Assembly: GCA_002686955.1 (NCBI GenBank)
Contig: NYZA01000143.1
Span: 6,974-70,973, forward strand
Reading direction: 5' to 3'
Origin: Gemmatimonadota bacterium
Lineage (GTDB): Bacteria > GCA-2686955
DNA length: 64,000 bases
Positions 1,150-48,952 of this stretch are shown piece by piece (the first letter of the stretch is position 1; every line of letters starts with the position of its first letter). Below the pieces are notes generated by a model. The model was given only the letters and a program-made list of their open reading frames with translations, was not told the origin of the DNA and made no database searches. The position numbers were made by a program, and so were the translations under genes.

Positions 1150-2122
1150 CGGCCCCCGCTCCGCCACCGCGCGCCACCCGCGCCCAAGGAGCAACAATCG
1201 CCCCCTCGAGCACCTCCCCCGCACCCACACTCGCCCCGTCGAACATAACCGTGTCGCTCAAGCGCGCCCCCTCCCCGATCTCGCACTCCCGCCCCGCGAC
1301 ACCCCACCCCGAAAGCCGCGCGCTCGCCGCCACCCGCGCCGAAGGAGCGATCCGCCACGAGGCGTTGCCGGCGGCCACCGGAAGGCCACCGCCCCATTCC
1401 GAAAGCGCCCCCCCCGCGATCGCCCCGTGCGCCGCGAGGTATCGCTCCGGCGTGCCCAGATCGTGCCAAGCAGCCCCCTCCGCCCGCCACCCCCGCACAA
1501 CCAGCCCGGCATCGATCGCCGCGGTCACCGAGGGCACGAAGGGAGCCGGACGCCCCGGTTCCAGACGATCGAGCCAGGGCCAGTCGAGAACCGCCACCCC
1601 CGAGTAGGTCCATGAGCCGGCCTCACCCGCCGCTCCGAAACCGAGCACATTCCCGCTACGATCCACCCGAACCGAATCGGTGGGCCGATGCGAGACCAGC
1701 GCCATCGTCATCGCCAGCCGCCCCGCCCTCAGCTCCTCCGACCTCGCGCGATGCGCCGCCAAGAGCGAGCCCAGATCGAGATCGGTCACCGCGTCGGCGT
1801 TGTGGAGCAGCACCGGCTCCCCCCTCACCCGCCGCCGGAGCCACGGAACAAAGCCCGCGATCCCCCCCGCCGGCCCCTGAATCGTCTCCTCCACGATGCA
1901 ATGCGCCCGCGGCTCCCCCTCGCGCCGATCGAGAAAACGCGTCAGAAGCGCTGCATGGTGGTGGGCATTGACGCCGACAACCCCAACCCCCGCCCGCCGC
2001 AATCGCGTCATCACATGGTCGATCGCCGGAGCTCCAGCGACCGGCACGAGCGCCTTGGGAAGTCGATCGGTGAGCGGCGCCAGACGGGTGCCGAGCCCGG
2101 CGGCCAGGATGATGGCGTGCAT
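1139..2122 (-). CDS. Sugar-1-phosphate nucleotidyltransferase (MurU/GCD1-like N-terminus plus C-terminal hexapeptide-repeat LbH domain)
   Basis: N-terminus MHAIILAAGLGTRLAPLTDRLPKALVPV is the classic NTP_transferase G-x-G-T-R motif. The C-terminus has left-handed beta-helix repeats (VGAGEVLEGAIVAP...). 327 aa. Confidence 0.65.
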   Translation of the reverse strand: MHAIILAAGLGTRLAPLTDRLPKALVPVAGAPAIDHVMTRLRRAGVGVVGVNAHHHAALLTRFLDRREGEPRAHCIVEETIQGPAGGIAGFVPWLRRRVRGEPVLLHNADAVTDLDLGSLLAAHRARSEELRAGRLAMTMALVSHRPTDSVRVDRSGNVLGFGAAGEAGSWTYSGVAVLDWPWLDRLEPGRPAPFVPSVTAAIDAGLVVRGWRAEGAAWHDLGTPERYLAAHGAIAGGALSEWGGGLPVAAGNASWRIAPSARVAASARLSGWGVAGRECEIGEGARLSDTVMFDGASVGAGEVLEGAIVAPWARVARGGGAGAGDE

Positions 2123-2140
2123 GAGAGCCTCGGAAAGAAA

Positions 2141-3340
2141 CTAGCCAGCGTCGTACAACAAATACTCCAACCGCTCCATCCTCCAGGCCTCCTCCAAGGG
2201 CTCCCACCCCTGGGCGACCTCTCGCCACCCCGCCCCCGCATCGATCGCTCCCCGCAGATCGCCGCCCCCCGACAGAAAATCGATCGGCATCTTCCCCTCC
2301 TCTCCCTCGAAAGGAGGATCGCACCAGAAGGCCTCGCCCGCCTGCGCCCGCGCCGCCGCCAACACCGCCACCCCCGCGCGCACGGGATGGAAACGCTCCC
2401 GATCGAGAACCTCGATCTGCGCCCCACCGCAGAGCTCCCCGGCGAAGCGATCGTGGCCCGGCGTGAAGCGACAGGGACGAAAACAGACACCCGGCAAATC
2501 GGCCTTCCTCAGATCGCTCACCAGGCGGCGCGCATCGATCCACGGCGCGCCGAAAACCTCGAAAGGCCGCGCCGTCCCCCTCCCCACCGACAACCGGGTC
2601 CCCTCGACCAGCCCCATTCCCGGAAACACCGCCACAGAGTCGCTCGTCGGCAGATCGGGCGCCGGCATCACCCACGGCAGCCCCGTGCGATCGAACCAAT
2701 GACGCGCCCCCCACCCGCGCATCTTCACCACCCGCACCCCCACACCGATCCGCTCCGCGATCCAGCGCAGCGCCTCCCCGATCGAAAAACCATGACGCAG
2801 CGGCAACGAATGCAGCCCCACCACACTTTCGAAACCTTCATCGACACCCGGCCCCTCCGCGTGTCGCCCCCCCAGCGGATTCGGACGATCCAGCACCACA
2901 GCCTCGACCCCCGCCCCGCGGCAAGCCTGCAGACAGAGCGTCGCCGTCCAAAGAAAAGTGTGGCAACGCGCCCCGACCTCCGGAAGATCGATCACCAGCG
3001 CATCGAGCCCCGCCAGACTCTCGGAGCTCGGCTTCCGTTCGGCGCCATAGAGACTCACCACCTCGAGCCCGCTCGCCGCATCGGAAAACCCCTCCCAGCG
3101 ATCCGCCATCTCCCCCCAGACCCCATGGCGCGGACCGAAAAGACGCACCACCTCGACATCGGGCGCCGCCCCCCGAAAACGATCGATCGCGTGCACGCGC
3201 TGGGAATCGATCGACGCCGCATTCACCAGCAGCCCCACCCGTCGCCCCTTGAGCTGACGAAATCGCTCGGCCACAAGAGAATCGAGCCCGGTCTGGATCG
3301 CTTTTCGGGAGGGAGAGCGGTGACGCTTCGGACGAGACAT
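2141..3340 (-). CDS. DUF1343 family protein (NamZ-like exo-beta-N-acetylmuramidase)
   Basis: 399 aa. N-terminal LKGRRVGLLVNAASID... matches the conserved DUF1343 start (LKGKRVGLITNQTG...). First gene of a three-gene minus-strand operon. Confidence 0.6.
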   Translation of the reverse strand: MSRPKRHRSPSRKAIQTGLDSLVAERFRQLKGRRVGLLVNAASIDSQRVHAIDRFRGAAPDVEVVRLFGPRHGVWGEMADRWEGFSDAASGLEVVSLYGAERKPSSESLAGLDALVIDLPEVGARCHTFLWTATLCLQACRGAGVEAVVLDRPNPLGGRHAEGPGVDEGFESVVGLHSLPLRHGFSIGEALRWIAERIGVGVRVVKMRGWGARHWFDRTGLPWVMPAPDLPTSDSVAVFPGMGLVEGTRLSVGRGTARPFEVFGAPWIDARRLVSDLRKADLPGVCFRPCRFTPGHDRFAGELCGGAQIEVLDRERFHPVRAGVAVLAAARAQAGEAFWCDPPFEGEEGKMPIDFLSGGGDLRGAIDAGAGWREVAQGWEPLEEAWRMERLEYLLYDAG

Positions 3341-12314: not shown

Positions 12315-14129
12315 CTAGTCCGCGTACCCGAGAGCTTTCAGCTCTTCGCGCAACCGAGGATTGGGATCGGGGGGACGGGGTGGGGTCCACCGAAGCTGCT
12401 CGAAGCGCGTCATGAGCGACCGATGGACCTTGGGATTGGACAGGAGCCCGCTCCTGACATCGGTGCGGTCATCGCCGGCGGGGGCGAGAACATTTGCTCC
12501 GGTCCGAGGATCTAACGTGAGGGTCCAACCGTCCGAACGGGTCGCGCAAATGGCGGGGTTCCGATCTCCGAGACGCGGCGAGCCGAGCGCCGGTGCTTCC
12601 GACCAGACGAGACGCGGGGAGCGATTGGAGGACCGATCCGCGAGCAGCGATCGCCCGTCGAGATCCACCATGCCGATCGCATCGCCCTCGACTCCGAAGA
12701 TATCGAGCAGAGTCGGCGCCAGATCGGCCAATGACACCAAGTTCCGGGCAACACCGGGCGCTTCCTCACCCCCCACGCGAACCGGAGCACCCACCGGCGG
12801 CTTGATGATCAGCGGTACCCGCAGCACCTCCCGGCGCAGCGACTTGCCGTGCTGAAAGACCCCATCTCTCCCAAACTGTTCGCCGTGGTCCGCCGCGATG
12901 ATGATCCAGCTTCGTTCCCACAGCCCCCGCGCCTCCAGCGCCCGCCAGAGGAGGCCGATCTGCGCGTCGAGCCAGGCCACTTCGCCCCGATACCGCGCCC
13001 GAAGAGCGTTCGCGATCTCCGCCGAAGGCTCGGAGCCCGCGGCGGCGAGCCCTTCCAGCTCCGCGAGCGTGCCCTCTAGCGCGAAGGGCGGTGCGTCGAA
13101 GAGAGAGCGGTACGGCTCGGGTGCGTCATAGGGCGCGTGCGGTGCGTCATCGTAGTAGTGGATCCAGAGCAGGAAGGGATCCTCGGCGGGCGCATCGAGA
13201 AGGAGCCAGCGGCGCGCGGCGAGCGTGGTCGGCACCGAGGAATCCGCCGTATCGAACCAGGCGCCGACAGTCTGCCACCGAGCGAGAAGCTGGCGCAGGG
13301 GCGGAAGATCCCAAACCGAGAGCTCGCGATGGAGTCGGCGCCGAAACCCCCGGTCGAGACCGATCGCGTCGGCGAGATCGAGGTCGGTGGCCGATACCAT
13401 CCGAAGATCCCGCGCGCTCAAGGCATCCCCCACCCGAACCAGGCCGGGATCGAGCGCATGGAGATTCGATCGCACTCCATGCCGGTGCACCCAGCGACCG
13501 GTCATCATCGACGTGAGACTTGGGATCGTAAAGGGCGCGGTGGCGACCGCGTTGTCGAAGCGGATCGATTGGCGAGCAAGCCGATCGATGCGCTCCGTGT
13601 GAGCGTCCGCGGCTCCGTACGCACCGAGAACATCGGCCCTCAGCGTGTCGATGGTGAGCAAGACGACGCGCGGGGCGTCGCCGCGGGCGGCTGGAGCCGG
13701 TAGCGGCCAAGGGACCGCGATCGCGCCGACCACCAGCGCACCCGCCCACGCCGCTCGACCGCCGCGCACCGCCCCCCAGTGAACGATCGGCACCAGCGCA
13801 AGTCCCACCGCGCTGATCGGCAACTCCAAGCCGGTATCTCGGCGGACCAACGCCGTCCACAGAATCAGGACCCCCACCCGCAAGACCGCCGACGCAATGA
13901 GGGAAGCCGGGGCTGGCGATTCTCGTCGTCCCCCCGAGGACAAATGCGTCATGCAGCCGAAGGCGGCACCCGCCAGTGCGTACGACGCGCCCGACGCAAC
14001 GATGAACTCCCAGCGCGCCACCGGCAAGAGGAGCCCCAGCCGAAGAAGCCGCACGCTCTCGACCAGGCCGAGCCCCCCCCAGATCGCGCCGTCCACCAGA
14101 GCGGCCCTGCGGCACCCGCGGATCGCCAC
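12315..14129 (-). CDS. Membrane-anchored AlkP/sulfatase-fold enzyme (N-terminal multi-TM domain plus periplasmic catalytic domain)
   Basis: ...VVLLTIDTLRADVLGAYG... metal-binding start of the sulfatase fold. The nucleophile region reads ATAPFTIPS (no C/S-x-P-x-R FGly motif). About 150 aa of TM helices at the N-terminus. The start codon is uncertain. Confidence 0.65.
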   Translation of the reverse strand: MAIRGCRRAALVDGAIWGGLGLVESVRLLRLGLLLPVARWEFIVASGASYALAGAAFGCMTHLSSGGRRESPAPASLIASAVLRVGVLILWTALVRRDTGLELPISAVGLALVPIVHWGAVRGGRAAWAGALVVGAIAVPWPLPAPAARGDAPRVVLLTIDTLRADVLGAYGAADAHTERIDRLARQSIRFDNAVATAPFTIPSLTSMMTGRWVHRHGVRSNLHALDPGLVRVGDALSARDLRMVSATDLDLADAIGLDRGFRRRLHRELSVWDLPPLRQLLARWQTVGAWFDTADSSVPTTLAARRWLLLDAPAEDPFLLWIHYYDDAPHAPYDAPEPYRSLFDAPPFALEGTLAELEGLAAAGSEPSAEIANALRARYRGEVAWLDAQIGLLWRALEARGLWERSWIIIAADHGEQFGRDGVFQHGKSLRREVLRVPLIIKPPVGAPVRVGGEEAPGVARNLVSLADLAPTLLDIFGVEGDAIGMVDLDGRSLLADRSSNRSPRLVWSEAPALGSPRLGDRNPAICATRSDGWTLTLDPRTGANVLAPAGDDRTDVRSGLLSNPKVHRSLMTRFEQLRWTPPRPPDPNPRLREELKALGYAD

Positions 14130-15332: not shown

Positions 15333-17249
15333 TCAGCTCCGGAGCTGCTCCTCCAGAAGCACGCCCGCGATCGTCATGAAGTCCTTCTCCGTGACCAGGC
15401 CCACGAGGCGCTCGTTCTCGACCACGGGCAGACAGCCGACCCGGTGCTGCTTCATCAGCGCGATCGCCTCGAGTGTCGGCGTGCTCGGCGGCACCGACAT
15501 CGGGTGCATCTGCATGATCTCGGAAACCGGCACCGTCTTCGTATGGGCCTCGGCTAGGTTGCGCACCAGGAAGCGCAACAGAGATCGGTAGGTGACCAGG
15601 CCAACCAGGCGGTTCTCGTTGTCCTCGACCGGAACGAAACGGATGTGCTGCCAGTCCATGAGGTTGACGACCAGATCGACGAGGTCGCCTTCGTTCACCG
15701 TGTAGAGGTCCGTGGACATGTACTGCTCGACCCGGGCGTAGTTCGATCTCCAGTCGCCGGCGTCGTCGATCGTGGCGAGACTCCACTCGTGAACCGGCTT
15801 GAGGCTCAGCTCTCGGGTGACGCAGCAGGCGGTGAGGGCGCTCAGCCGTTCGGCCTTCGTGCCCTTGCCCTTCATATCGGCATGGGACTGGATCACCCAG
15901 CAGGCACCCGTTTGACCGCTCGTGACTCGCGCCTCGATCACACCAAGGTAACGCTCGATGTCGTCCGCGTTGATGCCCGCGGTGGCGAGCCCCTCGCGCG
16001 CCATCGGGAGAAGCCGTTCCAAAACCAGCGTCAAGACTGGCTCCGGACTGCTCTTGTGAATCCACGATAGTTGCGCGCCCAATCCGAATCGGGCCGCCGC
16101 CAAGAAGTTCGCACGCGTGTCATCGAAATCCATGACGCGCGTGATGTCGGCGTACTCCTCGGTCATCCCGGCCAGGAGCCCGAACCAGAATGCCGCATTC
16201 GCGACCTCGTCCACCGGTGTCGGTCCGGAGGGGATGTATCGGTTCTCGATTCGAAGATGTGGCTTGCCTTCGGAGATGCCGTAGCAGACGCGGTTCCAGC
16301 GGTATACGGTGCCGTTGTGGAAGCAAAGGGCGCGAAGCTGAGGCACACGACCGGCGGCGAGCTCCGCCAGCGCATCCTCCTCTTCCGCCGCGGCCATGAG
16401 CACGCGAAAACGGGCGATGTCCTCCTGGAAGATCTCCAGAACGGAGTCGTCCACCCACTTCGTCCCGAAACTGACTCGCGGCTGCACCGAGCGCTGGTGC
16501 GAACGGATGTTGCGGGTATCGATCGATTGCTCGAAAAGCGCGATTCGGGTCTCCCGCCACAGCCGTTTGCCGAAGAGAAGCGGAGAGTTGCAGCAGATCG
16601 CCAGCAGCGGAGCGGCCGCGGCCTGCGCCATATTGTAGAGGCGGGCGAACTCGTTCGGTCCCACCTGGAAGTGGGTCTGAAAACTGGTGTTGCACGCCTC
16701 CAACATCACGGTGGCGTGGCTGATCAGAAGCTCGTCTACACCCTTGATCCGGAATTCGTAGTCTTTTCCGCGCAACGCGGTGAGCGACTCGTTCAGAGCC
16801 AAGTAGCGTGGGTTCTCGGTCATGTTCTCGAGACCGAGATGGGGGACGTCGAGCGTCGGCAGGATGCCGGTCATCACAACATCACCCCCCAGATCCCTCG
16901 CGGCCCCGCGGATCTTGCCCACGTACTCGGTGACCTGACGCTCGAGCGTACTCAGACAGGTGCCACCGAAGGTCAGAGGCGGCAGATTGAACTCGATGTT
17001 GAACTTCGCGAGCTCGGTAACGACGGCCGGGTCCTCAATACGTTCCAAAACCTGCTGGACCATCGGCGCCGGGCGCCAGTCGCGGTCGACCAGGAAGAGC
17101 TCCTGCTCGACACCGATTCGCCTCACACCGGTCTCGAACGAGCCATCGATCAACATCCGTTCGAGCGCCCGCACATCGCTCAGGAGCTGCTTCATGAAGG
17201 TGCGGAGCTCCGAGGCTTCAAAACGGGCGGTCTGGGGGTGGTCACCCAT
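15333..17249 (-). CDS. Carboxylate-amine ligase (glutamate-cysteine ligase family 2, GCS2/YbdK-like) fused to a C-terminal CBS pair
   Basis: ...RRIGVEQELFLVDRDWRPAP... is the GCS2 N-terminal motif. The C-terminus has two CBS repeats (...LVGLVTYRSLLRFL..., ...LVGLVTEKDFM...). Likely start MGDHPQT at 17249, since the ORF track's earlier Met would run into ubiX. Confidence 0.6.
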   Translation of the reverse strand: MGDHPQTARFEASELRTFMKQLLSDVRALERMLIDGSFETGVRRIGVEQELFLVDRDWRPAPMVQQVLERIEDPAVVTELAKFNIEFNLPPLTFGGTCLSTLERQVTEYVGKIRGAARDLGGDVVMTGILPTLDVPHLGLENMTENPRYLALNESLTALRGKDYEFRIKGVDELLISHATVMLEACNTSFQTHFQVGPNEFARLYNMAQAAAAPLLAICCNSPLLFGKRLWRETRIALFEQSIDTRNIRSHQRSVQPRVSFGTKWVDDSVLEIFQEDIARFRVLMAAAEEEDALAELAAGRVPQLRALCFHNGTVYRWNRVCYGISEGKPHLRIENRYIPSGPTPVDEVANAAFWFGLLAGMTEEYADITRVMDFDDTRANFLAAARFGLGAQLSWIHKSSPEPVLTLVLERLLPMAREGLATAGINADDIERYLGVIEARVTSGQTGACWVIQSHADMKGKGTKAERLSALTACCVTRELSLKPVHEWSLATIDDAGDWRSNYARVEQYMSTDLYTVNEGDLVDLVVNLMDWQHIRFVPVEDNENRLVGLVTYRSLLRFLVRNLAEAHTKTVPVSEIMQMHPMSVPPSTPTLEAIALMKQHRVGCLPVVENERLVGLVTEKDFMTIAGVLLEEQLRS

Positions 17250-17423
17250 GCGGACTCCTCGGCGAGAGACGCGTTGGGACGGAACTGCGATTGCGGGCCA
17301 CTTGTGAAGTCTATCCGAATCGGGGCGCGGAGGATGGACCCTATGATGGGACGCAACCCGAGCTCGATGACGGGATCGGATCGGAAGCGCTACTCTCTTC
17401 ATGCGCGCCGACCGATCCGCCTC

Positions 17424-18017
17424 ATGAGAAAGAGCAGCATGACCCGAGCGAAATCAACCCGACCCAGAATCGCGGTCGGCCTCTGCGGAGCTTCAGGCGC
17501 CCAGTACGGAGTCGAGCTTCTGCGGGCGCTCGCCGAGCGCGAGGTCGAGACCCATCTGATCGTGAGCCGGTGGGCCGATGCGGTTATGCGGACCGAAACC
17601 GACACCACCCTCGCCGAGCTGGAAGATCTGGCGGAGGTGACCCACGACAATCACGACATGGCGGCTTCGCTTTCCAGCTCGAGCTTCCTCGTCGATGGAA
17701 TGGTCATCATTCCGGCCTCGGTGAAGACGGTCGCCGAAATCGCCGGTGGTTCGGCCGGCACTCTGATCGCGCGGGCCGCAGACAACATGTTGAAAACCCG
17801 CCGCAGGCTCATAGTTTGCATACGAGAAACCCCGATCAGTCTTCCTTGTATCGAAAACTTGCGCACCATCATGCTCGCCGGAGGCATCGTTGCTCCGCTC
17901 AGCCCGGGTTTCTACCATCGGCCGGCCGACCTCAGCGATCTCTACGCATTCATGGTTGGCAAAGTGCTCGATATGCTCTACATCGAGAACAGCCAGTTCC
18001 GCCGGTGGGGCGAGTAG
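17424..18017 (+). CDS. ubiX: UbiX/Pad1-family flavin prenyltransferase (prenylated-FMN synthase)
   Basis: ...RIAVGLCGASGAQYGVELLRAL...MVIIPASVKTVAEIAGGSAGTLIARAADNMLKTRRRLIVCIRETP... is the canonical UbiX sequence. It is the C-terminal part of ORF 16071..18017, whose upstream portion is an antisense artefact. Confidence 0.85.
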   Translation: MRKSSMTRAKSTRPRIAVGLCGASGAQYGVELLRALAEREVETHLIVSRWADAVMRTETDTTLAELEDLAEVTHDNHDMAASLSSSSFLVDGMVIIPASVKTVAEIAGGSAGTLIARAADNMLKTRRRLIVCIRETPISLPCIENLRTIMLAGGIVAPLSPGFYHRPADLSDLYAFMVGKVLDMLYIENSQFRRWGE

Positions 18018-18035
18018 GTCGGAGGGGAATCACAG

Positions 18036-19352
18036 GTGTCGCTCAGGTCATATCTCGATGAACTGGAACGTCTCAACGAGACCGAGGTTGTGACGACTAT
18101 CGCCGACACTCGATTCGAGATCGCCGGAGTGTTGAAAGCGCTGGAGAACCGACCCGTACACTTCAGAAATGTACCGGGTTGTGAATTCAGTGTCGCCGGT
18201 AACCTACTGGCCTCCAAGGAAGGGATCGCCCGGCACTTTGGAATCGAAGTCGATCGACTGATACAGTGGATCGCCAAGGGAATCGACCAGCCCTCTCCCC
18301 CTCGGCGGGTTCGAAGCGCCCCTTGCCAAGAGGTCGAAATGAACGAGATCGACCTCGATCGGCTCCCGATCCTTCTTCATGGCCACGACGACGGTGGTCG
18401 CTACATCACGTCCGGTGTATGTGTCGCTCGCCACCCCGACCTCGGCCAGAATCTCGACTTCCACCGCGCGATGCAGATCGGAAAGGATCGGCTGGCGCTG
18501 CGGATCGTGCGGCATCGGGACTTCGATCGTTTTCTCCGTGATCAGCAAGAGATGGATGTGGCCATCTGCATCGGCAACGGACCGAATGTGCTTCTCGCGG
18601 CGGCCACGAGTGTCGCTGGCGGCGGAGATGAGCTCGAGATCGCCAATACGCTCGAAGCGCTCGACGTGACGCGCGCCAAGAGCGCCGACCTGTGGATCCC
18701 CGCCGATTGCGAGATCGTTTTGGAAGGCAAGGTGCGCCTCGACGACCGCGCATCGGAGGGACCCTTCGTCGATCTGACCGAGACGCTCGATGTCGTGCGC
18801 ACCGAGCCGGTGATGACCGTCACGAGGATCACGCACCGTCGCGACGCGATCTGGCAGGCTCTGCTGCCCGGAGGGCTGGAGCACAAGCTTCTGATGGGCA
18901 TGCCGAGAGAGCCGACCATCTACAGGAATGTGCGAGAAGCCGGTGTCAATTGTCGCGATGTGAGCATCACTCCAGGTGGCTGTTCCTGGCTGCATGCGAT
19001 CATCAAGATTCGCAAGACCGGCGACGATGATGTCGCAAAAGCCCTCGATGCCGCGTTCGCGGGGCACCGCAGCTTGAAACACGCCTTCGTAGTCGACGAA
19101 GACATCGATATTCTCGATCCCATTGCCGTCGAATGGGCTTTCGCAACCCGGTTTCAGTTCGATCGGGACGTGTATCCACGAGAGATCGAAGCGGGATCCA
19201 GCCTCGATCCTTCGGCGGAGCCGGGTACGAAACGCACGGCGAAAGTGGGTTTCGATCTCACCGTCCCCTCCGGGACCGAAAGCGCACGCGAGAAGTTCGA
19301 GCATGCGCGCTTCCCCAGGGTTGATCTCAAGCGCTTCTTGGACAGGCAATGA
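18036..19352 (+). CDS. UbiD-family prFMN-dependent decarboxylase (candidate trans-anhydromevalonate-5-phosphate decarboxylase)
   Basis: 438 aa, UbiD-like throughout. It sits immediately between ubiX and the AcnX large subunit. The ATGA overlaps the next gene. Confidence 0.8.
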   Translation: MSLRSYLDELERLNETEVVTTIADTRFEIAGVLKALENRPVHFRNVPGCEFSVAGNLLASKEGIARHFGIEVDRLIQWIAKGIDQPSPPRRVRSAPCQEVEMNEIDLDRLPILLHGHDDGGRYITSGVCVARHPDLGQNLDFHRAMQIGKDRLALRIVRHRDFDRFLRDQQEMDVAICIGNGPNVLLAAATSVAGGGDELEIANTLEALDVTRAKSADLWIPADCEIVLEGKVRLDDRASEGPFVDLTETLDVVRTEPVMTVTRITHRRDAIWQALLPGGLEHKLLMGMPREPTIYRNVREAGVNCRDVSITPGGCSWLHAIIKIRKTGDDDVAKALDAAFAGHRSLKHAFVVDEDIDILDPIAVEWAFATRFQFDRDVYPREIEAGSSLDPSAEPGTKRTAKVGFDLTVPSGTESAREKFEHARFPRVDLKRFLDRQ

Positions 19353-20527
19353 AGCTGATCGGCCACGAAGAATCGATGCTCTCCGGCGCCGAAGGAAAGG
19401 CCGCACGAAAGTGCATGCAGATCCTGACCGCACTCGGCGAGATCTTCGGCGCGGAGAAGATGATCCCGGTCGAGACGGTTCAAATCTCGGGAGTTTCTTA
19501 CGACAATCTGGGCGACGCGGGGCTGGAGTTCTTGCGAGAGCTGGCCGCCGACGGCCGCGCGAAGGTGCCGACAACACTCAATCCCGCCGGCATGGATACA
19601 GAGGACTGGAGGGCGCTCGGCATCCCCGAGGATTTCGCCCGAAAGCAGACCGAGGTCATCGCGGCGTTCACCAAGATGGGTGTCGATGCGACCTGCTCCT
19701 GCACTCCCTACCTCATCGGCAATCTTCCGAAGCCTGGCGCCCATATCGCTTGGGGCGAAAGCTCCGCCGTCACCTTCGCGAATTCGGTCCTCGGCGCTCG
19801 AACGAACAAAGAGGGCGGTCCTAGCAGCGTCGCGGCGTCGCTAACGGGATGCACGCCGGCATACGGCCTGCACCTCGACGAGCATCGTCGTCCGAAGGTG
19901 CGTGTGATGCTGGAGACCGATCTCGAAACCAAGTTGGAGTTCGGAGCGTTCGGAAAGGCACTGGGGGAAGCGCTGGACGGCCGGATCCCCTTGATCGAAG
20001 GGATCTCGACGCGCCGCTGGGACCTTCTGAAAGCCCTCTGTGCCGCCTTCGCGACCTACGGAGGAGCCCCGATCTTCCATATCGCGGGGGGAACGAGTGA
20101 GCAGTGGAGCCCTCCGGCCGACGCGATTTCGATCGGCCGAGATGAGATCGTCCGGGCCGCGCGGGCGCTCGATGATGGGGCGGATCGGGTCGATTTCGTC
20201 TTCTTGGGCTGCCCTCATCTCTCGCTCGATGAGCTGCGAGAGATCGCGGAGCTGCTCCGCGGCAAGACCGTCACGAAGGAGCTCTGGCTCGGCGTGGCAC
20301 GGCGGATCAAAGAGCAGGCCGATGCGGCCGGAATCACCGAGATCTTGGTCGCCGCCGGAGCGAAGATGGCGTGTGATACCTGCCACGTCGTGGCGCCGCT
20401 GAGAGGTCGTTTCGATACCTTCGCGACCAACTCGGCCAAAGGGATCTACTACGGTCGCTCTAAGAACCGCTTCAAAAGTGTGTTTCGAACAACTGAAGAG
20501 TGCATTCGACTCGCGACGGAGAAGTAA
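19349..20527 (+). CDS. Aconitase-X catalytic (large) subunit, DUF521 (candidate phosphomevalonate dehydratase large subunit)
   Basis: ...IPVETVQISGVSYDNLGDAGLEFL...VPTTLNPAGMD...CSCTPYL...AWGESSAVTFANSVLGARTN... are DUF521/AcnX hallmark blocks. Confidence 0.8.
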   Translation: MKLIGHEESMLSGAEGKAARKCMQILTALGEIFGAEKMIPVETVQISGVSYDNLGDAGLEFLRELAADGRAKVPTTLNPAGMDTEDWRALGIPEDFARKQTEVIAAFTKMGVDATCSCTPYLIGNLPKPGAHIAWGESSAVTFANSVLGARTNKEGGPSSVAASLTGCTPAYGLHLDEHRRPKVRVMLETDLETKLEFGAFGKALGEALDGRIPLIEGISTRRWDLLKALCAAFATYGGAPIFHIAGGTSEQWSPPADAISIGRDEIVRAARALDDGADRVDFVFLGCPHLSLDELREIAELLRGKTVTKELWLGVARRIKEQADAAGITEILVAAGAKMACDTCHVVAPLRGRFDTFATNSAKGIYYGRSKNRFKSVFRTTEECIRLATEK

Positions 20528-20530
20528 AGG

Positions 20531-20920
20531 GTGCGAGGCAGAATCGTCTACGATGGTGTCGCGGAAGGGCCGGCGCTGGTGTCGACCGAAGCGATCGGTT
20601 TCTACGGCGGTGTCGATCCCGATACGGGACGAATCGTCGAGGCCGGGCACCCGCTCGAAGGATCGTCGGTGGCGGGAAAAGTCCTGGTCTTTCCGCAAGG
20701 CAAGGGCTCCACGGTAGGCTCCTACACACTCTATCGGCTCCGCAAGAATGGAGTCGCACCGAGCGCCATGATCAACGAGGAGTGTGAAACGGTCGTCGCC
20801 GTCGGTGCGATCATCTCCGAGATCCCCTGCGTCGACCAGATCTCCTTGGAACGGATCCGAAGCGGTGACCTGGTTCGGGTGAGGGGTAGTGAAGTCATGG
20901 TCGAAAGGAGAGAAGGGTGA
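20531..20920 (+). CDS. Aconitase-X swivel (small) subunit, DUF126
   Basis: 129 aa with a GTG start, 4 nt after the large-subunit stop. ...FYGGVDPDTGRIVEAGHPLEGSSVAGKVLVFPQGKGSTVGSY... is the DUF126 core. Confidence 0.75.
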   Translation: MRGRIVYDGVAEGPALVSTEAIGFYGGVDPDTGRIVEAGHPLEGSSVAGKVLVFPQGKGSTVGSYTLYRLRKNGVAPSAMINEECETVVAVGAIISEIPCVDQISLERIRSGDLVRVRGSEVMVERREG

Positions 20921-21735
20921 GCGCCTCCGTCGAAACGGTGATTCTGAAGATCGGCGGCAGCGTCATCACGAACAAGGACTCGAACCGATTCGAAATTCGT
21001 CGCGATGAAATCGGTCGCATCGCCTCCGAAATCGGTGCCGCGAGAGCCGCCAGGCCGATGCGCCTGGTCCTTGTACACGGTGCCGGCCCTTTCGGCCACA
21101 CGATGGTGACGAACTACGGAATCGCCGAAGGGGTTGGGGTCCCGAAAGGAATTGAAGGCTTCGTTAGAACCCACAATTCGATGCAAGATCTCAACTACGT
21201 ACTGATGTGTATCTTGCGCGACAAGGGGCTCCTGGGGTTTCCGATCCAACCCAGCGCCTGCATTCGCCAGAAGAGACGCGAGTTGATCTCGTTCGATACC
21301 GCGATCATCGCCGGTCTCCTCGACCTCGACGACGGAATCGTGCCGATTCTCTACGGCGACATGGTTCTCGACGAGTCGATCGGAGCAAGTGTCGTCTCGG
21401 GAGATGCGATCGTCGCTCATCTCGCGCCCGCTCTCCGAGCCGATCGAGTTCTTATGGGCACCGATGTCGAGGGCGTGTTCGAGGGCGATCCGAAGACCGA
21501 TCCCGCCGCCGCATCGATCCCCACGATCAGCGCCGAGAACCTCGATCGGGTGATGGAGTCGGTCCGCGGCGCGACGACGGTCGACGTCACCGGAGGGATG
21601 CAGAAGAAGCTGATCGAGATCCGCGACAAGCTCGGCGGAATCGGGGTCAAGATCTTCGACGCGCTCGCACCGGGCAACGTCGAAAGGGCACTCCTGGGTC
21701 GCCAGGTAGGAACGGAAATCAGTCTCCGTCGGTAG
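20917..21735 (+). CDS. Isopentenyl phosphate kinase (amino-acid-kinase fold)
   Basis: LKIGGSVIT, LVHGAGPFGH, SGDAIVAHLA, GTDVEGVF, DVTGGMQKKLIEI and ALLGRQVGTEI align block-for-block with archaeal IPK. GTG start with an AAGGAG RBS 7 nt upstream. Confidence 0.8.
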   Translation: MSASVETVILKIGGSVITNKDSNRFEIRRDEIGRIASEIGAARAARPMRLVLVHGAGPFGHTMVTNYGIAEGVGVPKGIEGFVRTHNSMQDLNYVLMCILRDKGLLGFPIQPSACIRQKRRELISFDTAIIAGLLDLDDGIVPILYGDMVLDESIGASVVSGDAIVAHLAPALRADRVLMGTDVEGVFEGDPKTDPAAASIPTISAENLDRVMESVRGATTVDVTGGMQKKLIEIRDKLGGIGVKIFDALAPGNVERALLGRQVGTEISLRR

Positions 21736-23656
21736 TGGGCCCCTCCGAGCGGCGCATCGTCCAGATCAGTGCTCTTTCGACGAGATCGGCCTCCTGCCTC
21801 CGCCCTTCTTCGGAGTAGGACGCACCGATTCGAGCCAGAAGTCTGTCGCGGGGTCCGCCCTTGCGGATCGCTTCGCGGTAGTCCCGGCGCGCTTCTGCTC
21901 TCTGACCGGAGATGGACAGAAGATTCGCACGCGTGGCGAGGAGCTCGTGCAGCGGTGCATGCGACAAGAAAGGGAGGACTCCGCCCGAATCGTCGGGCCA
22001 ACGCTCATGTAGATCGAGCATGCGGTCCACGATCGCCAGCGCTCTGGTCGTATCCCCCGCGTCGAGAACCGATTCGCCCCAGACACCCCATAGCTCGTCG
22101 TCGTAGCAGAGGGGCGCGGCGCCGGCGGCTACCATCCTCGCCTCGCCTGGGCGACCGGCGCGCAGTAGAGCGAATGATAGATGCAGCGGCAAGCGGGCGT
22201 AGAGAGGATCGAGGGAGTGGAGATCCTCGTAGGCCGACACCGCCTCGGTCCAGGCGCGAAGCCGCTCGTGCGCAATCCCGATTCGGTAGAGCAGGCGGGG
22301 ACTCCGGGGCTCCACGATGCGGGCCCGCTCGAGATGTGGGAGGGCTTCCGCCGGGCGGCCATGAATCAGGTGCCTTTCCGCGGCAAGCAGCTCCCCCTCC
22401 GTCCCCAGGGTGAAGCGCAGCTCTCGCGCACCGAGAAAGAGCGCCACCAGCCCGATCGGCGCCAGGATCGCGGCGCGCCCGATGCGGGTAGGGGTCCACG
22501 CGCGAGCGGATGGAGCGCCGAGCGCACCGAGGACGCCGACCATTCCCCAAAAAGGCAGCGCCACCGAGAACCAGCGCAGATTCGGACTCGCGAGCCCATC
22601 GACCGCGACGCCCGCGATCCCGGCGAGGAGCGCCGCGCGCCAGATCGCCTTCTCGTCCCCCTCGTCCCGATCTCGCATCGCCCGCCGGATGAGCAACAAG
22701 GCGAGCATCGCTAGGAGCCCGAGTCCGACGATCCCGAGCTCCGCGGCGACCTCCAACGCCTCGCAGTGCGCGTGGCCGGTGTTCGCCGTCAGATGGAGAA
22801 GGGGCGATTCCGGGGGACGCGCCGCCTGGATCGTTCTCGTGAAAGAGCCGAGGCCTTGGCCCAGCCTGGGTGCCTGCTCCACGAGCGAGAGAGCGCCGCG
22901 CCAGATCGTGCGCCGAACGAGCGCCGTTCCCGCGGGCCGAACGAAAAGCGCCCATGCCGCGGCGGCGGATCCGAACGCGGCCAGGGCCGCCAGGAGCGAG
23001 GTTCGCGGGTGGCGGGGATCCGCGAAGGCCTGCTGCACCAGAAGTGCCACCACCAGCCCCCCCAGCGCGGCCTCCGATCTTTGCGCGACGAGCACGATCA
23101 GCATGACTGCCAGAGCCCAATGGCCGATCCGCTTGCCGCGGGCACGGACCAGTGCGATCGGAATCCAGGGCAGGATCGAAGCGGCCAGCACATTCGGATT
23201 GCCCGCGGCGGCCCCCATAGATCGAATCCCGTCCCAGAAACGGGGAAAGGGAAGGGTCGCCAACACCGGAAGAACTACCAAAAAGGGGCGCAACATCGAC
23301 CGGGGCTCGATCCCGAGCAGCGCCACAAGAGCGAAAGCGATGCCGCTGTGGTGGAGAAGCAGGGCTTGCCGCACCCGCGGATCGACCGGCGCGCCAAAGG
23401 CGCGAATCCAGCCCCATGCGCCGCAAGCGAGCAGCATAAACGCGATGGCGCGCGATGCCCCCCGCGCTACATCTTTGCGCATCGCCGCTCCGAGGCAGAG
23501 AGCGCCGACACCCAAGGCCGCGATCGCACCTTTGATGCGAACCGGCTCGAGATGCTCCGGATGGTACGCGACCGCAACCGTCGCCATCAGCAACGCGGCG
23601 GCGAGGCCGAGGCGATCGGTGGCGCTCTTCGTACTCGATTCCTTCGATTTGAACAT
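21719..23656 (-). CDS. O-antigen ligase (Wzy_C) family membrane protein with C-terminal TPR repeats
   Basis: Polytopic N-terminus with a periplasmic loop ...TANTGHAHCEALEVAAELGIVG... (the O-antigen ligase H-motif). The last ~200 aa are TPR-like. 645 aa. Confidence 0.6.
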   Translation of the reverse strand: MFKSKESSTKSATDRLGLAAALLMATVAVAYHPEHLEPVRIKGAIAALGVGALCLGAAMRKDVARGASRAIAFMLLACGAWGWIRAFGAPVDPRVRQALLLHHSGIAFALVALLGIEPRSMLRPFLVVLPVLATLPFPRFWDGIRSMGAAAGNPNVLAASILPWIPIALVRARGKRIGHWALAVMLIVLVAQRSEAALGGLVVALLVQQAFADPRHPRTSLLAALAAFGSAAAAWALFVRPAGTALVRRTIWRGALSLVEQAPRLGQGLGSFTRTIQAARPPESPLLHLTANTGHAHCEALEVAAELGIVGLGLLAMLALLLIRRAMRDRDEGDEKAIWRAALLAGIAGVAVDGLASPNLRWFSVALPFWGMVGVLGALGAPSARAWTPTRIGRAAILAPIGLVALFLGARELRFTLGTEGELLAAERHLIHGRPAEALPHLERARIVEPRSPRLLYRIGIAHERLRAWTEAVSAYEDLHSLDPLYARLPLHLSFALLRAGRPGEARMVAAGAAPLCYDDELWGVWGESVLDAGDTTRALAIVDRMLDLHERWPDDSGGVLPFLSHAPLHELLATRANLLSISGQRAEARRDYREAIRKGGPRDRLLARIGASYSEEGRRQEADLVERALIWTMRRSEGPTTDGD

Positions 23657-29838: not shown

Positions 29839-31530
29839 ATGCACGACCATATCTTGGGAATCTGTTGCTACGGCACCAACGATACCGGCGTGGCGCTCCT
29901 CGACCCCGAGGGCAAGCTGCTCTACATGAGCGAAGAGGAGCGCTTCAGCCGTATCAAGAAGGACACCTCTTTCCCGGCCGCCGCGATCGACGATGCACTG
30001 CGACACACCGGCATTTCGATCGACGCCGTCTCCGATGTCGGCTTCTATTCCGATCTTTCCGGCGTGCGGCTCTCCGCGGCGCTCCACACGCTGCGCAATC
30101 TTCCTCTCTCTCTCCTCTTTCTCGGCGGTGGCGTCGACTCCTACCGTCGTCACCAGGGTTTCGCCCGCGTGCTTCGCGAGTTGACCGGCTTCTCGGGGAA
30201 GGTGCACCACTTCCCTCACCACCTCTGCCACGCGGCCTCCGCGTACTACCTCTCTCCTTTCGACAGCGCCGCCGTCCTCACCCTCGACGGCACGGGGGAG
30301 TTCACCACCGGCACCACGTGGCTCGGCGAAGGGATCGAGCTCCACCCTTTCGGCCGAGGCCAGTTCCCGCATTCGATCGGTCGGGTTTACGAAGCATTCA
30401 CCCAATACCTCGGCTTCAAGCCGAACCGGGACGAGGGCAAGGTGATGGGCCTCGCGGGCCACGGCGACCCTGCCCGGTTCCGTTCGGCGCTCGCCGATCT
30501 CATCCACCTGGAGCCCGGCGGCCGCTACCGCGTCAATCTCCGTTACTTCCTCTACCACCTCGGTAGCGACACTCTTTTCAGCCGCCGCCTGGTAGAGCGC
30601 TTCGGCCCGCCCCGTGTGCCGGAATCGAGTCTCGACGAACACTACCGTGACATCGCCGCCGCTGTCCAGGAGCGCCTCGAAGACGTAGGGCTACACTTGA
30701 GCCGCGCCCTCGCCGCCAAGACCCCGACGCGCGACATCTGCCTCGCGGGTGGCGTGACGCTGAATACACAGATGAACGCCCGAATCGAAAGCGACGGCAT
30801 TTTCGATCGGGTCTTCGTCCCTCCCCCGGCGGGCGACCCGGGAACCGCGCTCGGCGCGGCGAAGCTGGTCTACCACCGCGCGCACCGCGGCCGGTCGCGC
30901 GAAACGATGACACACGCCTACTGGGGGCCCTGCTACGACGACCAGGAATGCGAGCGCGCGGCGAAAGAAGCGGGCACGAGCTGGCGCCGAGTCGATGATC
31001 CGGGGGACGCCGCCGCCGAAGCGATCGCACGCGGCGAAATCGTCTCTTGGTTCCAGGGACGGATGGAGATCGGCCCTCGCGCACTGGGCAACCGCTCGAT
31101 CCTCGGCGACGCACGCCGCTCCGAAATGGCCGACGTCATGAACCGCCGGGTCAAGAAGCGCGAATCGTTCCGTCCCTTCGCCCCTGCCGTGCTGGCCGAA
31201 CGTTGTGGCGACTATTTCGATCGCCCCGGCCCGCAGCCTTTCATGCTCAGCGTCTTCGGAGTGCGTGAAGAGCGCCGCTCCGAGGTCCCTTCGATCACCC
31301 ATGTCGACGGCAGCGCCCGGGTCCAGACCGTGCATCGCGAGTCGAACCCCGCCTTCTACAACCTGATCAAATGTTTCGACCGGCGCACTGGAGTGCCGGT
31401 AGTGCTCAATACATCGTTCAATGTGCGGGGCGAACCGATCGTCTGCACCCCGGCCGACGCGGCGGCGTGCTTTCAGAGCACCGATATCGACCGTCTCTAC
31501 ATGGGGCATATCGAGGTGATCGCTCGATGA
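29839..31530 (+). CDS. Carbamoyltransferase (NodU/CmcH family)
   Basis: N-terminal MHDHILGICCYGTNDTGVALLD (Carbam_trans_N) and a C-terminal Carbam_trans_C region (...VVLNTSFNVRGEPIVCTPADAA...). 563 aa. Confidence 0.85.
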   Translation: MHDHILGICCYGTNDTGVALLDPEGKLLYMSEEERFSRIKKDTSFPAAAIDDALRHTGISIDAVSDVGFYSDLSGVRLSAALHTLRNLPLSLLFLGGGVDSYRRHQGFARVLRELTGFSGKVHHFPHHLCHAASAYYLSPFDSAAVLTLDGTGEFTTGTTWLGEGIELHPFGRGQFPHSIGRVYEAFTQYLGFKPNRDEGKVMGLAGHGDPARFRSALADLIHLEPGGRYRVNLRYFLYHLGSDTLFSRRLVERFGPPRVPESSLDEHYRDIAAAVQERLEDVGLHLSRALAAKTPTRDICLAGGVTLNTQMNARIESDGIFDRVFVPPPAGDPGTALGAAKLVYHRAHRGRSRETMTHAYWGPCYDDQECERAAKEAGTSWRRVDDPGDAAAEAIARGEIVSWFQGRMEIGPRALGNRSILGDARRSEMADVMNRRVKKRESFRPFAPAVLAERCGDYFDRPGPQPFMLSVFGVREERRSEVPSITHVDGSARVQTVHRESNPAFYNLIKCFDRRTGVPVVLNTSFNVRGEPIVCTPADAAACFQSTDIDRLYMGHIEVIAR

Positions 31531-33284
31531 CGCGGGTCCTCTGCGCCCTCCTCTTCTTCGCGGCCGCCGGCTGCGGTCTCGGCCCGTCTCCCCTCCCCTC
31601 GATCGTCCTGATCTCTATCGACACCCTGCGTGCCGACCACCTCTCCTGCTACGGCTACGATCGCCCCACCCCCTCGATCGACTCTCTCGCCGCCCTCGGC
31701 GTGCTCTACGAAAACGCCCACGCCTCAGCCCCCTGGACCCTGCCCTCCCACGTGAGCCTCTTCACCGGCCTCTATCCCTCATCGCACGGAGTCGTCGACA
31801 CCGACCGCAGCCTCCCCCCCGCCATCGCCCAGCTCCCCGAGGCCCTGAAACGCCATGGCTACCGGACCGCTGGCTTCGGCGCCCATATCTACCTCGGCCG
31901 CAATTTCGGATTCGGCCGCGGCTTCGACCATTACGAGATCACCCCCTATCGCAACGATCCTCAAGAGATCTCGCGCGGCGACCGAATCGTTACAAAGGGC
32001 CTTCAGTGGCTCGACTCGCGCAAGGCCGATCCGCGCCCCTTCTTCCTTTTCCTACACATTTTCGATCCCCATTGGGCATACGCCGCACCGGAGCCGTGGA
32101 TCGGCAAGTACTCCTCCAATTACGTCGACCGGATGGACGGCTCCCTTCCCGCTCTCACCCATTTCATCGACCGCCCCATGCCGGGCGAGCTTCGACAGCA
32201 CGCGATCGACCTCTACGACGAAGAGGTCGCGTGGACCGACGCCCTGATCGGCCGCCTGATGCTCGAACTCAAAGCTCGAAGTATGTCGCCCATGGTCGTC
32301 CTCGTCGCCGACCATGGAGAGGAGTTCAAAGAGCACGGCTCGATGGGCCATGCAGTGACACTCTACAAGGAACAGACCCACGTTCCCCTGATCATCGTCG
32401 ATCCCGAGGGCGAGCAAGGGCAACGGGTCGCGGCGCCGGTTCGCACCATCGATCTCGTTCCCACTTTGGCCGAACGAGTGGGTATTCCAAGCGATGATCC
32501 GATCTGGCAAGCGCTCGAGGGAGCATCGCTGGATCGGGTCGATCCCGAACGCCCGGTCGTGATCGAGACCACGCGCTGGGGCTCTTCCAGGAGCGCGGTG
32601 TTGCTCGGTGATCAAAAGGCGATCTCCCCTTCGAGCTATCACTGGCTGGGCCACTGGCGCCGTGACGGAGAAGTCGTGCGCGAGCCGGTGGCGCATTTCG
32701 AGCGCGAGGCGGCTCTCTACGATCTCGCCGCCGATCCGAATGAGGCCACCCCCCTTCCCTGGGATCCGCGGGCTCCGGCGGCACTCGCACTGGAAGACTG
32801 GCAGGAGCGAACTTGGAGAGGAATCCGAGTCGAAATGCGGATCGAGAAGGGGCTCGAAGCGTTCATCTGCCTGCACGGCGACATCGTTTGGCGCGACCAG
32901 GCGAAGCTCGATGATGGAATCCGCACGCTCCCCGTGCCGATCGAGGGCTCGCTGATCACGCTCTCGAACCTACCTGCCGGGCGGAACCTCCGTCTCGATC
33001 TGCCTCTGGAACCGACTCAGCTCGATTCCTTGGAAATAGAAGTGTCGGGGGACGTCTTGTGGATTCGAGCCGGGAAGGAAGAGGAGCGGAGGCTCACCGC
33101 GGGCGGCCGCTGGACAATCGCGGCTAGTGATCCCGGTGATCATCACCGAGGATTGCCCGAAGGCGAAGCCGCCGTGTCGCGAATCTCCGTACGCACCCGT
33201 TCCTTCGAGGCGGTGAGAGCCGCGAGTGAGCTCTCCGAGCACGACAGGGAAGTGTTGCGCTCGCTCGGCTATGTGGATGGGTAG
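31527..33284 (+). CDS. Secreted lipoprotein of the AlkP/sulfatase fold (paralog of 12315..14129)
   Basis: Lipobox LFFAAAGCG. SIVLISIDTLRADHLSCYGYD, and nucleophile region HASAPWTLPSH (no C-x-P-x-R). Start ATG 31527 overlaps the carbamoyltransferase stop. Confidence 0.75.
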   Translation: MTRVLCALLFFAAAGCGLGPSPLPSIVLISIDTLRADHLSCYGYDRPTPSIDSLAALGVLYENAHASAPWTLPSHVSLFTGLYPSSHGVVDTDRSLPPAIAQLPEALKRHGYRTAGFGAHIYLGRNFGFGRGFDHYEITPYRNDPQEISRGDRIVTKGLQWLDSRKADPRPFFLFLHIFDPHWAYAAPEPWIGKYSSNYVDRMDGSLPALTHFIDRPMPGELRQHAIDLYDEEVAWTDALIGRLMLELKARSMSPMVVLVADHGEEFKEHGSMGHAVTLYKEQTHVPLIIVDPEGEQGQRVAAPVRTIDLVPTLAERVGIPSDDPIWQALEGASLDRVDPERPVVIETTRWGSSRSAVLLGDQKAISPSSYHWLGHWRRDGEVVREPVAHFEREAALYDLAADPNEATPLPWDPRAPAALALEDWQERTWRGIRVEMRIEKGLEAFICLHGDIVWRDQAKLDDGIRTLPVPIEGSLITLSNLPAGRNLRLDLPLEPTQLDSLEIEVSGDVLWIRAGKEEERRLTAGGRWTIAASDPGDHHRGLPEGEAAVSRISVRTRSFEAVRAASELSEHDREVLRSLGYVDG

Positions 33285-44884: not shown

Positions 44885-44889
44885 GGAGA

Positions 44890-46180: not shown

Positions 46181-46800
46181 GTGTCGCTACACGGCCACGG
46201 AACCGTGAAACTTCAATCAAGAGGATCGCACTCGACGGCCCATCTCGCGAGATTGACCGACACATCGGTCGTGCTGGTCGTCGACGTATCGAAGTCGACA
46301 CGTACGGTTGCCGCCCAAGTGCTCGGCTGCCGAGAGCTGGAACCGGATTTGCAGCTCCGGGGCGTCATCCTCAATCGTGTCGGCACCAGTCGTCAGGAGA
46401 AGGTGATTCGAGAGGCGATCGCCATCGAGACCGGATTGCCAGTCCTCGGCGCGATTCCCCGACTCGAAAGAGAGCTGCTACCCAGCAGATATCTCGGTTT
46501 GGTCACCGCGTTCGAGCACCCGAGAATGACGGAGGTTCTCGGTAAACTGGCCACGCTTGCCGAAGAGCGGATCGATCTCTCGCAACTGCTCGAAGTCGCG
46601 CGCTCCGCGCCAACTCTTGCGCGGCTGGCGCCGCATCGTTCACACACCAGTGTTTCCAAGCCGGTCAACATCGGCGTCCTCAGAGATCGTGCGTTCTCCT
46701 TTTACTATCCGGAGAATCTCGAAGCGATCGCGGGGAGCGGCGCGGAGCTGATCGAGATCTCGCCGCTCCGGGACTCCACGCTGCCCGCGATCGATGCACT
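46181..46800 (+). pseudogene. cbiA: Cobyrinate a,c-diamide synthase (CbiA/CobB) internal fragment
   Basis: ...VVLVVDVSKSTRTVAAQVLGCRELEPDLQLRGVILNRVGTSRQEKVIREAI...LPVLGAIPR...NIGVLRDRAFSFYYPENLEAI...ISPLRD... is collinear with the CbiA middle region. The N-terminal P-loop part is absent (it begins at the IS edge), and the GATase part is lost after IDALYAI. Confidence 0.55.
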
Positions 46801-47700: not shown

Positions 47701-47716
47701 GCAAAGGAGATCACTC

Positions 47717-48949: not shown

Positions 48950-48952
48950 GCG

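Follow-up and report, generated by a model that had tools for sequence, protein, structure and literature searches.

Work on Aeropyrum pernix and Methanosarcina mazei defined the 'archaeal' mevalonate pathway, and no other variant of the mevalonate pathway is as widespread in Archaea (PMC11052028, PMC10040528). Its anhydromevalonate route has been called 'unique to archaea' (PMC10040528); according to a 2026 review (PMC13001223), a pathway of archaeal type is encoded by some Chloroflexota, for which the review cites Kanno et al. 2024 (doi 10.1128/aem.01106-24), a study of Ca. Promineifilum breve. Here we analyse a 64,000-nucleotide stretch of DNA (the window; assembly GCA_002686955.1, contig NYZA01000143.1, positions 6,974 to 70,973 of the forward strand), in which genes for a UbiX-type flavin prenyltransferase, a UbiD-family decarboxylase, both subunits (large and small) of an aconitase X (AcnX) and a predicted isopentenyl phosphate kinase (IPK) lie side by side. 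We consider it probable that these five genes are one operon for the archaea-specific half of the pathway in a marine Gemmatimonadota-labelled bacterium. The most likely source of the operon is a DPANN-like archaeon, from which it would have come en bloc, independently of Chloroflexota, with vertical inheritance under purifying selection ever since.

The five genes are consecutive open reading frames (ORFs) on the + strand at 17424-21735, where the original prediction had placed them, and are seen as such in the window translation (Table 1). They are as tightly packed as had been claimed, with junctions of 18, -4, +3 and -4 nt. The UbiX stop (18017) and the UbiD start (18036) are separated by a gap of 18 nt, with GGAGGGG upstream of the UbiD start; the UbiD and AcnX-large genes overlap by 4 nt (ATGA); the two AcnX genes are 3 nt apart, with GGAGAAG upstream of the second; and the AcnX-small and IPK genes again overlap by 4 nt (GTGA), with AGGAGAG upstream. 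Purine-rich Shine-Dalgarno-like motifs are thereby found before three of the four internal starts. From this arrangement we infer that the five genes are co-transcribed and translationally coupled. The UbiX start is ambiguous between ATG 17424 and ATG 17439, gene callers on identical contigs mostly choosing 17439 (192 aa). The divergent - strand gene upstream, which encodes a glutamate-cysteine-ligase family 2 (GCS2) domain and a CBS pair, probably starts at 17249 rather than 17402 (638 aa on identical contigs), which leaves ~175-190 bp of intergenic DNA before ubiX. At the other end, the last 17 nt of the IPK gene overlap a convergent O-antigen-ligase/TPR gene (21719-23656, - strand).

Pfam searches with the five proteins returned, in gene order, Flavoprotein (PF02441), UbiD_N/UbiD/UbiD_C, AcnX (PF04412), the AcnX swivel domain (PF01989) and AA_kinase, and three of the five (UbiX, AcnX-small and IPK) exceed curated NCBIfam cut-offs. 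All five identities proposed from the letters alone were upheld by hidden Markov model, PDB and residue-level tests. The AcnX-large protein matches PF04412 over its full length (3e-140) and AcnX-small matches PF01989 (4e-34) as well as the DUF126 equivalog NF003046 (166 against a cut-off of 163); the large DUF521 and small DUF126 genes adjoin, as expected of a two-subunit AcnX. The large subunit scored 320 bits against the type IIb TkAcnX-L of T. kodakarensis (7CNR) versus 194-199 bits against type I, and the small subunit 127 bits against TkAcnX-S (7CNR_B), with 72 bits for the other side of the same comparison. By contrast, the score against the NCBI hydroxyproline-dehydratase equivalog was 276, far below its cut-off of 700.

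We then compared the AcnX pair with residues whose roles are known from the complex of TkAcnX with mevalonate 5-phosphate (MVA5P; PMC8184944) and from A. pernix phosphomevalonate dehydratase (PMDh; PMC10040528). The [4Fe-4S] ligands at sites A, 1 and B are kept as C118, C288 and C345 (C110, C283 and C342 in T. kodakarensis; C122, C297 and C356 in A. pernix), as is the catalytic glutamate, E137, and all four residues are invariant in the 70 aligned homologs. MVA5P contacts common to the T. kodakarensis protein and the window are G48, V49, S50, N53, N78, E137, S138, S139, K364 and Y368; among them the phosphate site is retained in G48-V49-S50, N53 and the type IIb-specific N78 (N79 in T. kodakarensis), and the carboxylate and hydroxyl contacts in S138, S139, K364 and Y368. 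The sole change among the contacts tested in the large subunit is Ala47 to Ser; the others are invariant or nearly so across ~70 homologs. In the small subunit the catalytic triplet Ser60-Thr61-Val62 corresponds to T. kodakarensis S62-T63-V64, and Leu27 of that protein is replaced by Tyr, the family majority (53 of 64 sequences), the T. kodakarensis residue being the exception. Hydroxyproline dehydratases share the aconitase X fold and the residues for carboxylate and C3-OH recognition, but the window protein has site-1 Cys288 in place of their site-C cysteine, and carries phosphate-binding rather than pyrrolidine-binding residues. A hydroxyproline dehydratase, which like a fosfomycin or aspartate kinase would have counted against the original prediction, is ruled out by this type IIb cysteine set and phosphate site together with the equivalog score. 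The comparisons support the pair as a predicted type IIb PMDh.

The UbiD homolog contains all three UbiD domains by Pfam and scored 332 against TIGR00148. It falls far below the equivalog cut-offs for UbiD (129 against 788), the MqnL-type enzyme (143 against 496) and VdcC (192 against 650), and likewise for two phenylphosphate carboxylases (77 and 62, cut-offs 469 and 565). A ubiquinone or menaquinone decarboxylase is ruled out by these scores, in keeping with the earlier suggestion that the UbiD/UbiX pair is unlikely to be ubiquinone-related. Among solved structures the homolog is closest to the furandicarboxylate decarboxylase HmfF (240 bits), with whose active-site motifs N139..R144, E199 and EGPFVD241-246 align; N139, R144, E199, E241 and D246 are invariant in a 14-sequence alignment. 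The invariant EGPF(V/I)DLTE motif would provide a Glu-Arg-Asp network, and the Glu/Asp alternative in the Glu-Arg-Glu/Asp network of the UbiD family is recognised in PMC5818171. At 54-61% identity, the homolog matches proteins of archaea and Chloroflexota whose genes nearly always lie directly upstream of AcnX-L/S, in loci sampled from Asgard, Thermoproteota, DPANN and Chloroflexota genomes. On this gene context, which we regard as strong, it is a candidate trans-anhydromevalonate 5-phosphate decarboxylase (AMPD).

UbiX matches PF02441 (1e-37), the subfamily model NF004685 (201.8 against a cut-off of 188) and TIGR00421 (192.5 against 108.9). It scored 158 bits against A. niger PAD1 (6QLG) and aligns end to end with PAD1/UbiX structures, E. 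coli O157 Pad1 included. The motifs GASGA, ETHL, RAAD..K..R..RE and PGFY align with PAD1; we take their individual residues to have the roles of the flavin mononucleotide (FMN)- and dimethylallyl phosphate (DMAP)-binding motifs of P. aeruginosa UbiX. The protein shares 83% identity with its counterpart in L007, a metagenome-assembled genome (MAG) locus, and 59-60% with the UbiX proteins encoded in DPANN-like archaeal operons.

The kinase exceeds the cut-off of the archaeal IPK equivalog NF040647 (IPPK_Arch; 216 against 120), whereas it reaches only 42 against a FomA model with a cut-off of 550 and scores far lower for FosC as well. It likewise scored 165 bits against M. thermautotrophicus IPK (3LL9) versus 44 bits against FomA. 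K11, G13-G14-S15, H54, H61 and DVTGGM are present in alignment with 3LL9 and 8U0K, and the motifs LKIGGS, LVHGAGPFGH and DVTGGM cited in the original prediction are in the translation and align with the M. thermautotrophicus enzyme. Identity as a fosfomycin or aspartate kinase is ruled out by the equivalog result and the low FomA and FosC scores.

Substrates and activities predicted from sequence in this way would join into one short route. The AcnX pair would act as a [4Fe-4S] PMDh, converting (R)-mevalonate 5-phosphate to trans-anhydromevalonate 5-phosphate; the UbiD homolog would decarboxylate this alpha,beta-unsaturated acid to isopentenyl phosphate, using prenylated FMN (prFMN) made by the co-encoded UbiX; and the IPK would phosphorylate isopentenyl phosphate to isopentenyl diphosphate (IPP). 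A different explanation is that the AcnX, UbiD/UbiX and kinase proteins resemble these enzymes by family only and act on some non-mevalonate substrate: they would dehydrate, decarboxylate and phosphorylate another hydroxy acid, or belong to a pathway for hydroxyproline or aromatic acids. Functions within the UbiD family are diverse, the solved structure closest to the homolog is that of a furandicarboxylate decarboxylase, AcnX types IIc-f have no known function (PMC10040528) and the enzyme roles in the window are predicted. Nevertheless, the tested MVA5P contacts are retained save Ala47Ser, the type IIb-specific N78 among them; the kinase exceeds the IPK cut-off; the hydroxyproline, UbiD, MqnL-type and VdcC equivalogs all score far below theirs; and the closest relatives of the genes are archaeal operons with an adjacent mevalonate kinase (MVK). 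We regard a non-mevalonate substrate as very unlikely.

An archaeal-type module in a bacterial contig raises the question of artefact, namely that assembly or binning joined an archaeal fragment to bacterial DNA. All five genes do have archaeal nearest relatives outside the bacterial clade. However, the exact window sequence, with identical junctions on both sides, is present in four assemblies (ERZ17293991, ERZ908359, ERZ27286803 and Logan ERR868353), at least two of which were built from the Tara Oceans run ERR868353 (PRJEB4352), and L007, which comes from a separate project, shares synteny with the window over the stretch from the RND pump to IPK, its proteins being 73-95% identical. The operon genes are 61-62% GC, matching the flanks, their relative synonymous codon usage correlates with that of the other window genes at r = 0.97, and the IPK gene overlaps a bacterial O-antigen-ligase gene. 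Because identical junctions recur, L007 is syntenic and GC and codon usage are host-like, a chimera is effectively refuted and its probability negligible.

The surroundings are those of a bacterial chromosome, as had been proposed. By Pfam, the flanks encode TetR, OMF, HlyD-type adaptor (PF13437) and AcrB-type RND pump proteins, and further window genes encode NamZ and AmgK/MurU-like proteins, Der/EngA, an O-antigen ligase with TPR, GGDEF, FapA and UvrA. The window Der is 100% identical to the NCBI protein 'MAG: ribosome biogenesis GTPase Der [Gemmatimonadetes bacterium]', and the closest relatives of the UbiD homolog in a genome-collection scan belong to two Gemmatimonadota MAGs, at 87% (L007) and 68% (L008) identity. 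Neither a tRNA nor an Rfam family was found in the window, which thus offers no RNA marker of taxonomy. These data support a marine bacterium labelled Gemmatimonadota as the host.

The five genes recur in the same order in four further contig sets, two of them Gemmatimonadota-labelled MAGs and two unlabelled contig lineages (L007, L008/L001, L004 and L090). The flank in L007 is syntenic with that of the window, in contrast to the flanks in L008/L001, L004 and L090, which are unlike it. Between the window and L007, dN/dS is 0.09-0.17 for four genes, the IPK gene being cut off in L007 and outside the comparison. Recurrence of the order across lineages and the low dN/dS indicate that the operon is old in the clade and has been kept by selection.

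To place the operon among its archaeal relatives, neighbour-joining trees were built for single genes and for a concatenation of UbiD, AcnX-L and AcnX-S (65 taxa, 951 columns). In the concatenated tree the bacterial five-gene clade is monophyletic and sister to Aenigmatarchaeota L009 in 200/200 bootstraps, whereas Chloroflexota are separately monophyletic (200/200) and never sister to the window's clade. Single-gene trees place AcnX-L (100/100) and IPK (99/100) with DPANN-like archaea; AcnX-S (75-82) mostly agrees, as does UbiX (54 on a strict count, higher with two Hodarchaeota admitted). Archaeal partners are 37-50% GC and related bacterial loci 62-68%, so that compositional attraction does not explain the grouping; composition works against it. 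Outside the bacterial clade, the order UbiX-UbiD-AcnXL-AcnXS was found, among the loci examined, only in the archaeal loci L009, L017, L018 and L027, and only in L018 and L027 does IPK follow AcnXS. L009 is genuinely archaeal, since it carries TFIIB, and reads MVK, histidine phosphatase, UbiX, UbiD, AcnX-L, AcnX-S, followed by a gene that is not IPK; L018 reads MVK, UbiX, UbiD, a ~780 bp stretch, AcnX-L, AcnX-S, IPK. The trees support the lateral transfer that the original prediction had raised; most likely the donor was a DPANN-like archaeon related to Aenigmatarchaeota, and the operon came over en bloc, in an event separate from the Chloroflexota case. A separate MVK-UbiD-AcnX cluster, on L036 (DATKTW010000113.1) and labelled 'Candidatus Nanopelagicaceae bacterium', nests among Asgard and is probably a misbinned archaeal contig.

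Several observations weigh against the proposal as a whole. The trees are exclusively distance-based, and their sampling is limited to the 80 loci in the database that most resemble the window. A UbiD-only tree, with the high-GC L090 added, groups the clade with DPANN-like archaea in 34/100 replicates, the rest scattering among long Chloroflexota branches; it does not settle the sister group, so the claim of origin is carried by the concatenation and by the trees of the other four genes. The AMPD assignment is contextual, the closest structural match being HmfF. A scan for the sigma-70 consensus gave no promoter-like site for the operon, which makes placement of its promoter upstream of ubiX presumptive, and terminator-like matches in a terminator scan were no better than chance. 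Archaeal PMDh is oxygen-sensitive (PMC10040528), and the host is marine. Finally, genes for MVK, hydroxymethylglutaryl-CoA (HMG-CoA) synthase, HMG-CoA reductase, thiolase and isopentenyl-diphosphate isomerase were not found in the 64-kb window, in ~7 kb of contig to its left or in related bacterial flanks.

The last of these points bears on how the module is fed. MVK adjoins the cluster in ~50 archaeal loci, including the closest archaeal relative, but tblastn (E 1e-3) with a GHMP-fold MVK query matched neither the window nor any bacterial locus, be it of the window clade or of Chloroflexota. The pathway is 'complete', as first described, in its three archaea-specific steps and cofactor supplier; MVK, on the other hand, is not in the operon, the window or the bacterial loci examined. 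A search with the MVK of the closest archaeal operon was uninformative rather than negative: the named top matches were all archaeal and none had a high-GC amino-acid composition. A Pfam survey of window ORFs (most of those of at least 200 aa plus several shorter) and of the ~7 kb of contig beside its left end revealed no genes for phosphomevalonate kinase, diphosphomevalonate decarboxylase or the methylerythritol phosphate (MEP) pathway; the classical kinase and decarboxylase pair, which would have weakened the original prediction, is thus missing from the window by the survey of its larger ORFs and the MVK tblastn query. The genes that define the pathway at the level of an organism (thiolase, HMG-CoA synthase and reductase, MVK and isomerase) are not at this locus, a statement about the locus and not the organism. 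We infer that MVA5P is supplied by an MVK and upper pathway encoded elsewhere in the genome.

Since the source of MVA5P is the main unverified step, the chief competing explanation is that the enzymes are as assigned but form an auxiliary or salvage module, the host making its IPP by the MEP pathway. Such a module might use exogenous mevalonate or mevalonate phosphate, re-phosphorylate isopentenyl phosphate or serve under particular (low-oxygen) conditions. The missing MVK and upper-pathway genes speak for it, given the adjacency of MVK in so many archaeal loci, and MEP is the predominant bacterial route (PMC13001223). Against it, strong purifying selection and retention across lineages at 61-87% UbiD identity argue for regular use. 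Moreover, Chloroflexota loci also lack an adjacent MVK, yet an archaeal-type pathway is reported for some of them, so non-adjacency is weak evidence of absence. On balance we think an auxiliary role unlikely and favour an operon that serves the archaeal-type pathway. A bolder version of that proposal is that, in a second and independent transfer from archaea to bacteria, the clade took over a DPANN-type operon whole and has come to depend on its route for all isoprenoids, MEP having given way to this route joined to an unrelated MVK and upper pathway. We hold this to be unlikely; were it true, this would be the first bacterium with outer-membrane genes whose IPP came by way of an archaeal, oxygen-sensitive Fe-S dehydratase followed by a prFMN decarboxylase.

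Table 1. Features of the operon and of a sulfur-metabolism cluster in the window
Feature	Position	Strand	Basis or context
Intergenic region; presumed operon promoter region	17250..17423	.	between divergent GCS2-CBS gene and ubiX
UbiX-type flavin prenyltransferase (prenylated-FMN synthase)	17424..18017	+	PF02441, NF004685, PAD1 alignment
UbiD-family prFMN-dependent decarboxylase, candidate AMPD	18036..19352	+	UbiD domains, context
Aconitase X large subunit (type IIb), predicted catalytic subunit of PMDh	19349..20527	+	PF04412, 7CNR
Aconitase X small (swivel, DUF126) subunit of predicted PMDh	20531..20920	+	PF01989, NF003046, 7CNR_B
Isopentenyl phosphate kinase (IPK; IP + ATP -> IPP), predicted	20917..21735	+	NF040647, 3LL9
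ATP sulfurylase	42246-43541	-	sulfur cluster
FAD/4Fe-4S oxidoreductase	43538-44884	-	sulfur cluster
DsrC-like protein	47669-48034	+	sulfur cluster
DsrM-like nitrate-reductase-gamma-fold protein	48329-48949	+	sulfur cluster
NrfD/DsrP-like membrane protein	49203-49811	+	sulfur cluster

Of the genes that border the operon, the GCS2-CBS gene (15333-17249, - strand) shows the strongest conservation, with 95% identity in L007. At related loci the operon has two kinds of neighbour that it lacks in the window: it is followed by an ABC1/UbiB-type kinase gene in convergent orientation (L001 13706-15019; L004 13709-15046) and preceded by a gene for a cyclic nucleotide (cNMP)-binding regulator (L004 8438-9376; L090 566-1492). 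Farther away, at 42246-49811, is a sulfur-metabolism cluster, unusual for a Gemmatimonadota genome, with a GC content of 0.57-0.61 that is below that of the rest of the window; a DDE transposase gene (DDE_Tnp_1 / DDE_5; 44918-45958, - strand) sits within it, between the oxidoreductase and DsrC-like genes. Genes for an AmgK-like kinase (APH), a MurU-like nucleotidyltransferase and the exo-muramidase NamZ stand in a row at 178-3340 (- strand), a peptidoglycan-recycling cassette and clear bacterial marker. At 51104-55369 a response-regulator/HisKA protein is encoded divergently from a 951-aa protein with three FapA_N repeats and a FapA beta-solenoid, and 58640-64000 (- strand) encodes a UvrA-like protein of very large size in which the ABC and the UvrA DNA-binding/interaction domains are duplicated, its frame open at the window end (>1737 aa). 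Several sulfatases and one sulfotransferase (window 12315-14129 and 31371-33284; L097 16304-16921) are accompanied by DegT aminotransferase, carbamoyltransferase, RmlD-like and UDP-glucose dehydrogenase genes, a set that suggests metabolism of sulfated glycans or of the cell envelope.

Gemmatimonadota would be the second bacterial phylum for the pathway beside Chloroflexota, the sole bacterial case found in the searchable literature. They are unmentioned in the review cited above (PMC13001223), and full-text searches combining Gemmatimonad* with mevalonate gave no report of the pathway in the phylum, in an incomplete library and hence as absence of evidence only. The rarity originally ascribed to such a module in bacteria holds to the extent that it is rarer than ordinary, but a published precedent exists in Chloroflexota. 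A separately acquired and selectively kept five-gene cassette would mean that the pathway is passed from domain to domain in one piece, and points to DPANN-like archaea as donors. It would also offer a mesophilic, ready-made operon in bacterial codons for the ATP-saving mevalonate route that metabolic engineers seek (PMC12547664, PMC13198327). A bearing on how isoprenoid synthesis originated and on the 'lipid divide' would follow only if full genomes show the module's feed and product. Current understanding is not overturned; the interest lies in isoprenoid evolution or pathway engineering.

Compared with the pathway of A. pernix and M. mazei, the window encodes the same four functions and families (PMDh, AMPD, prFMN synthase and IPK), and its UbiD-AcnXL-AcnXS triad is that of nearly all archaeal loci examined. 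It differs in having a bacterial host, one with genes for outer-membrane efflux (OMF/RND), and in that MVK lies outside the operon and window. The nearest relatives are the DPANN-like operons (L009/L087, L018, L027 and L017), whose proteins are 54-60% (UbiX), 54-60% (UbiD), 55-61% (AcnX-L) and 44-51% (IPK) identical to those of the window; they share its UbiX-UbiD-AcnXL-AcnXS order, extended by IPK in two of them, but have MVK directly upstream and a lower GC content. Ca. Promineifilum breve is likewise reported to be a bacterium with archaeal-type PMDh and AMPD homologs, explained by horizontal transfer. Many Chloroflexota loci have the UbiD-AcnXL-AcnXS triad, with UbiD 54-61% identical to that of the window, but they contain no IPK within 10 kb, and UbiX, where present, follows AcnX-S and is 36-42% identical, whereas the window clade has the full five-gene order. 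The enzymes and their chemistry are already known; what appears to be new is the bacterial phylum, the independent origin and the unusually complete layout, all five genes in one tight operon, which among the archaeal loci examined is shared by only a few DPANN-like ones.

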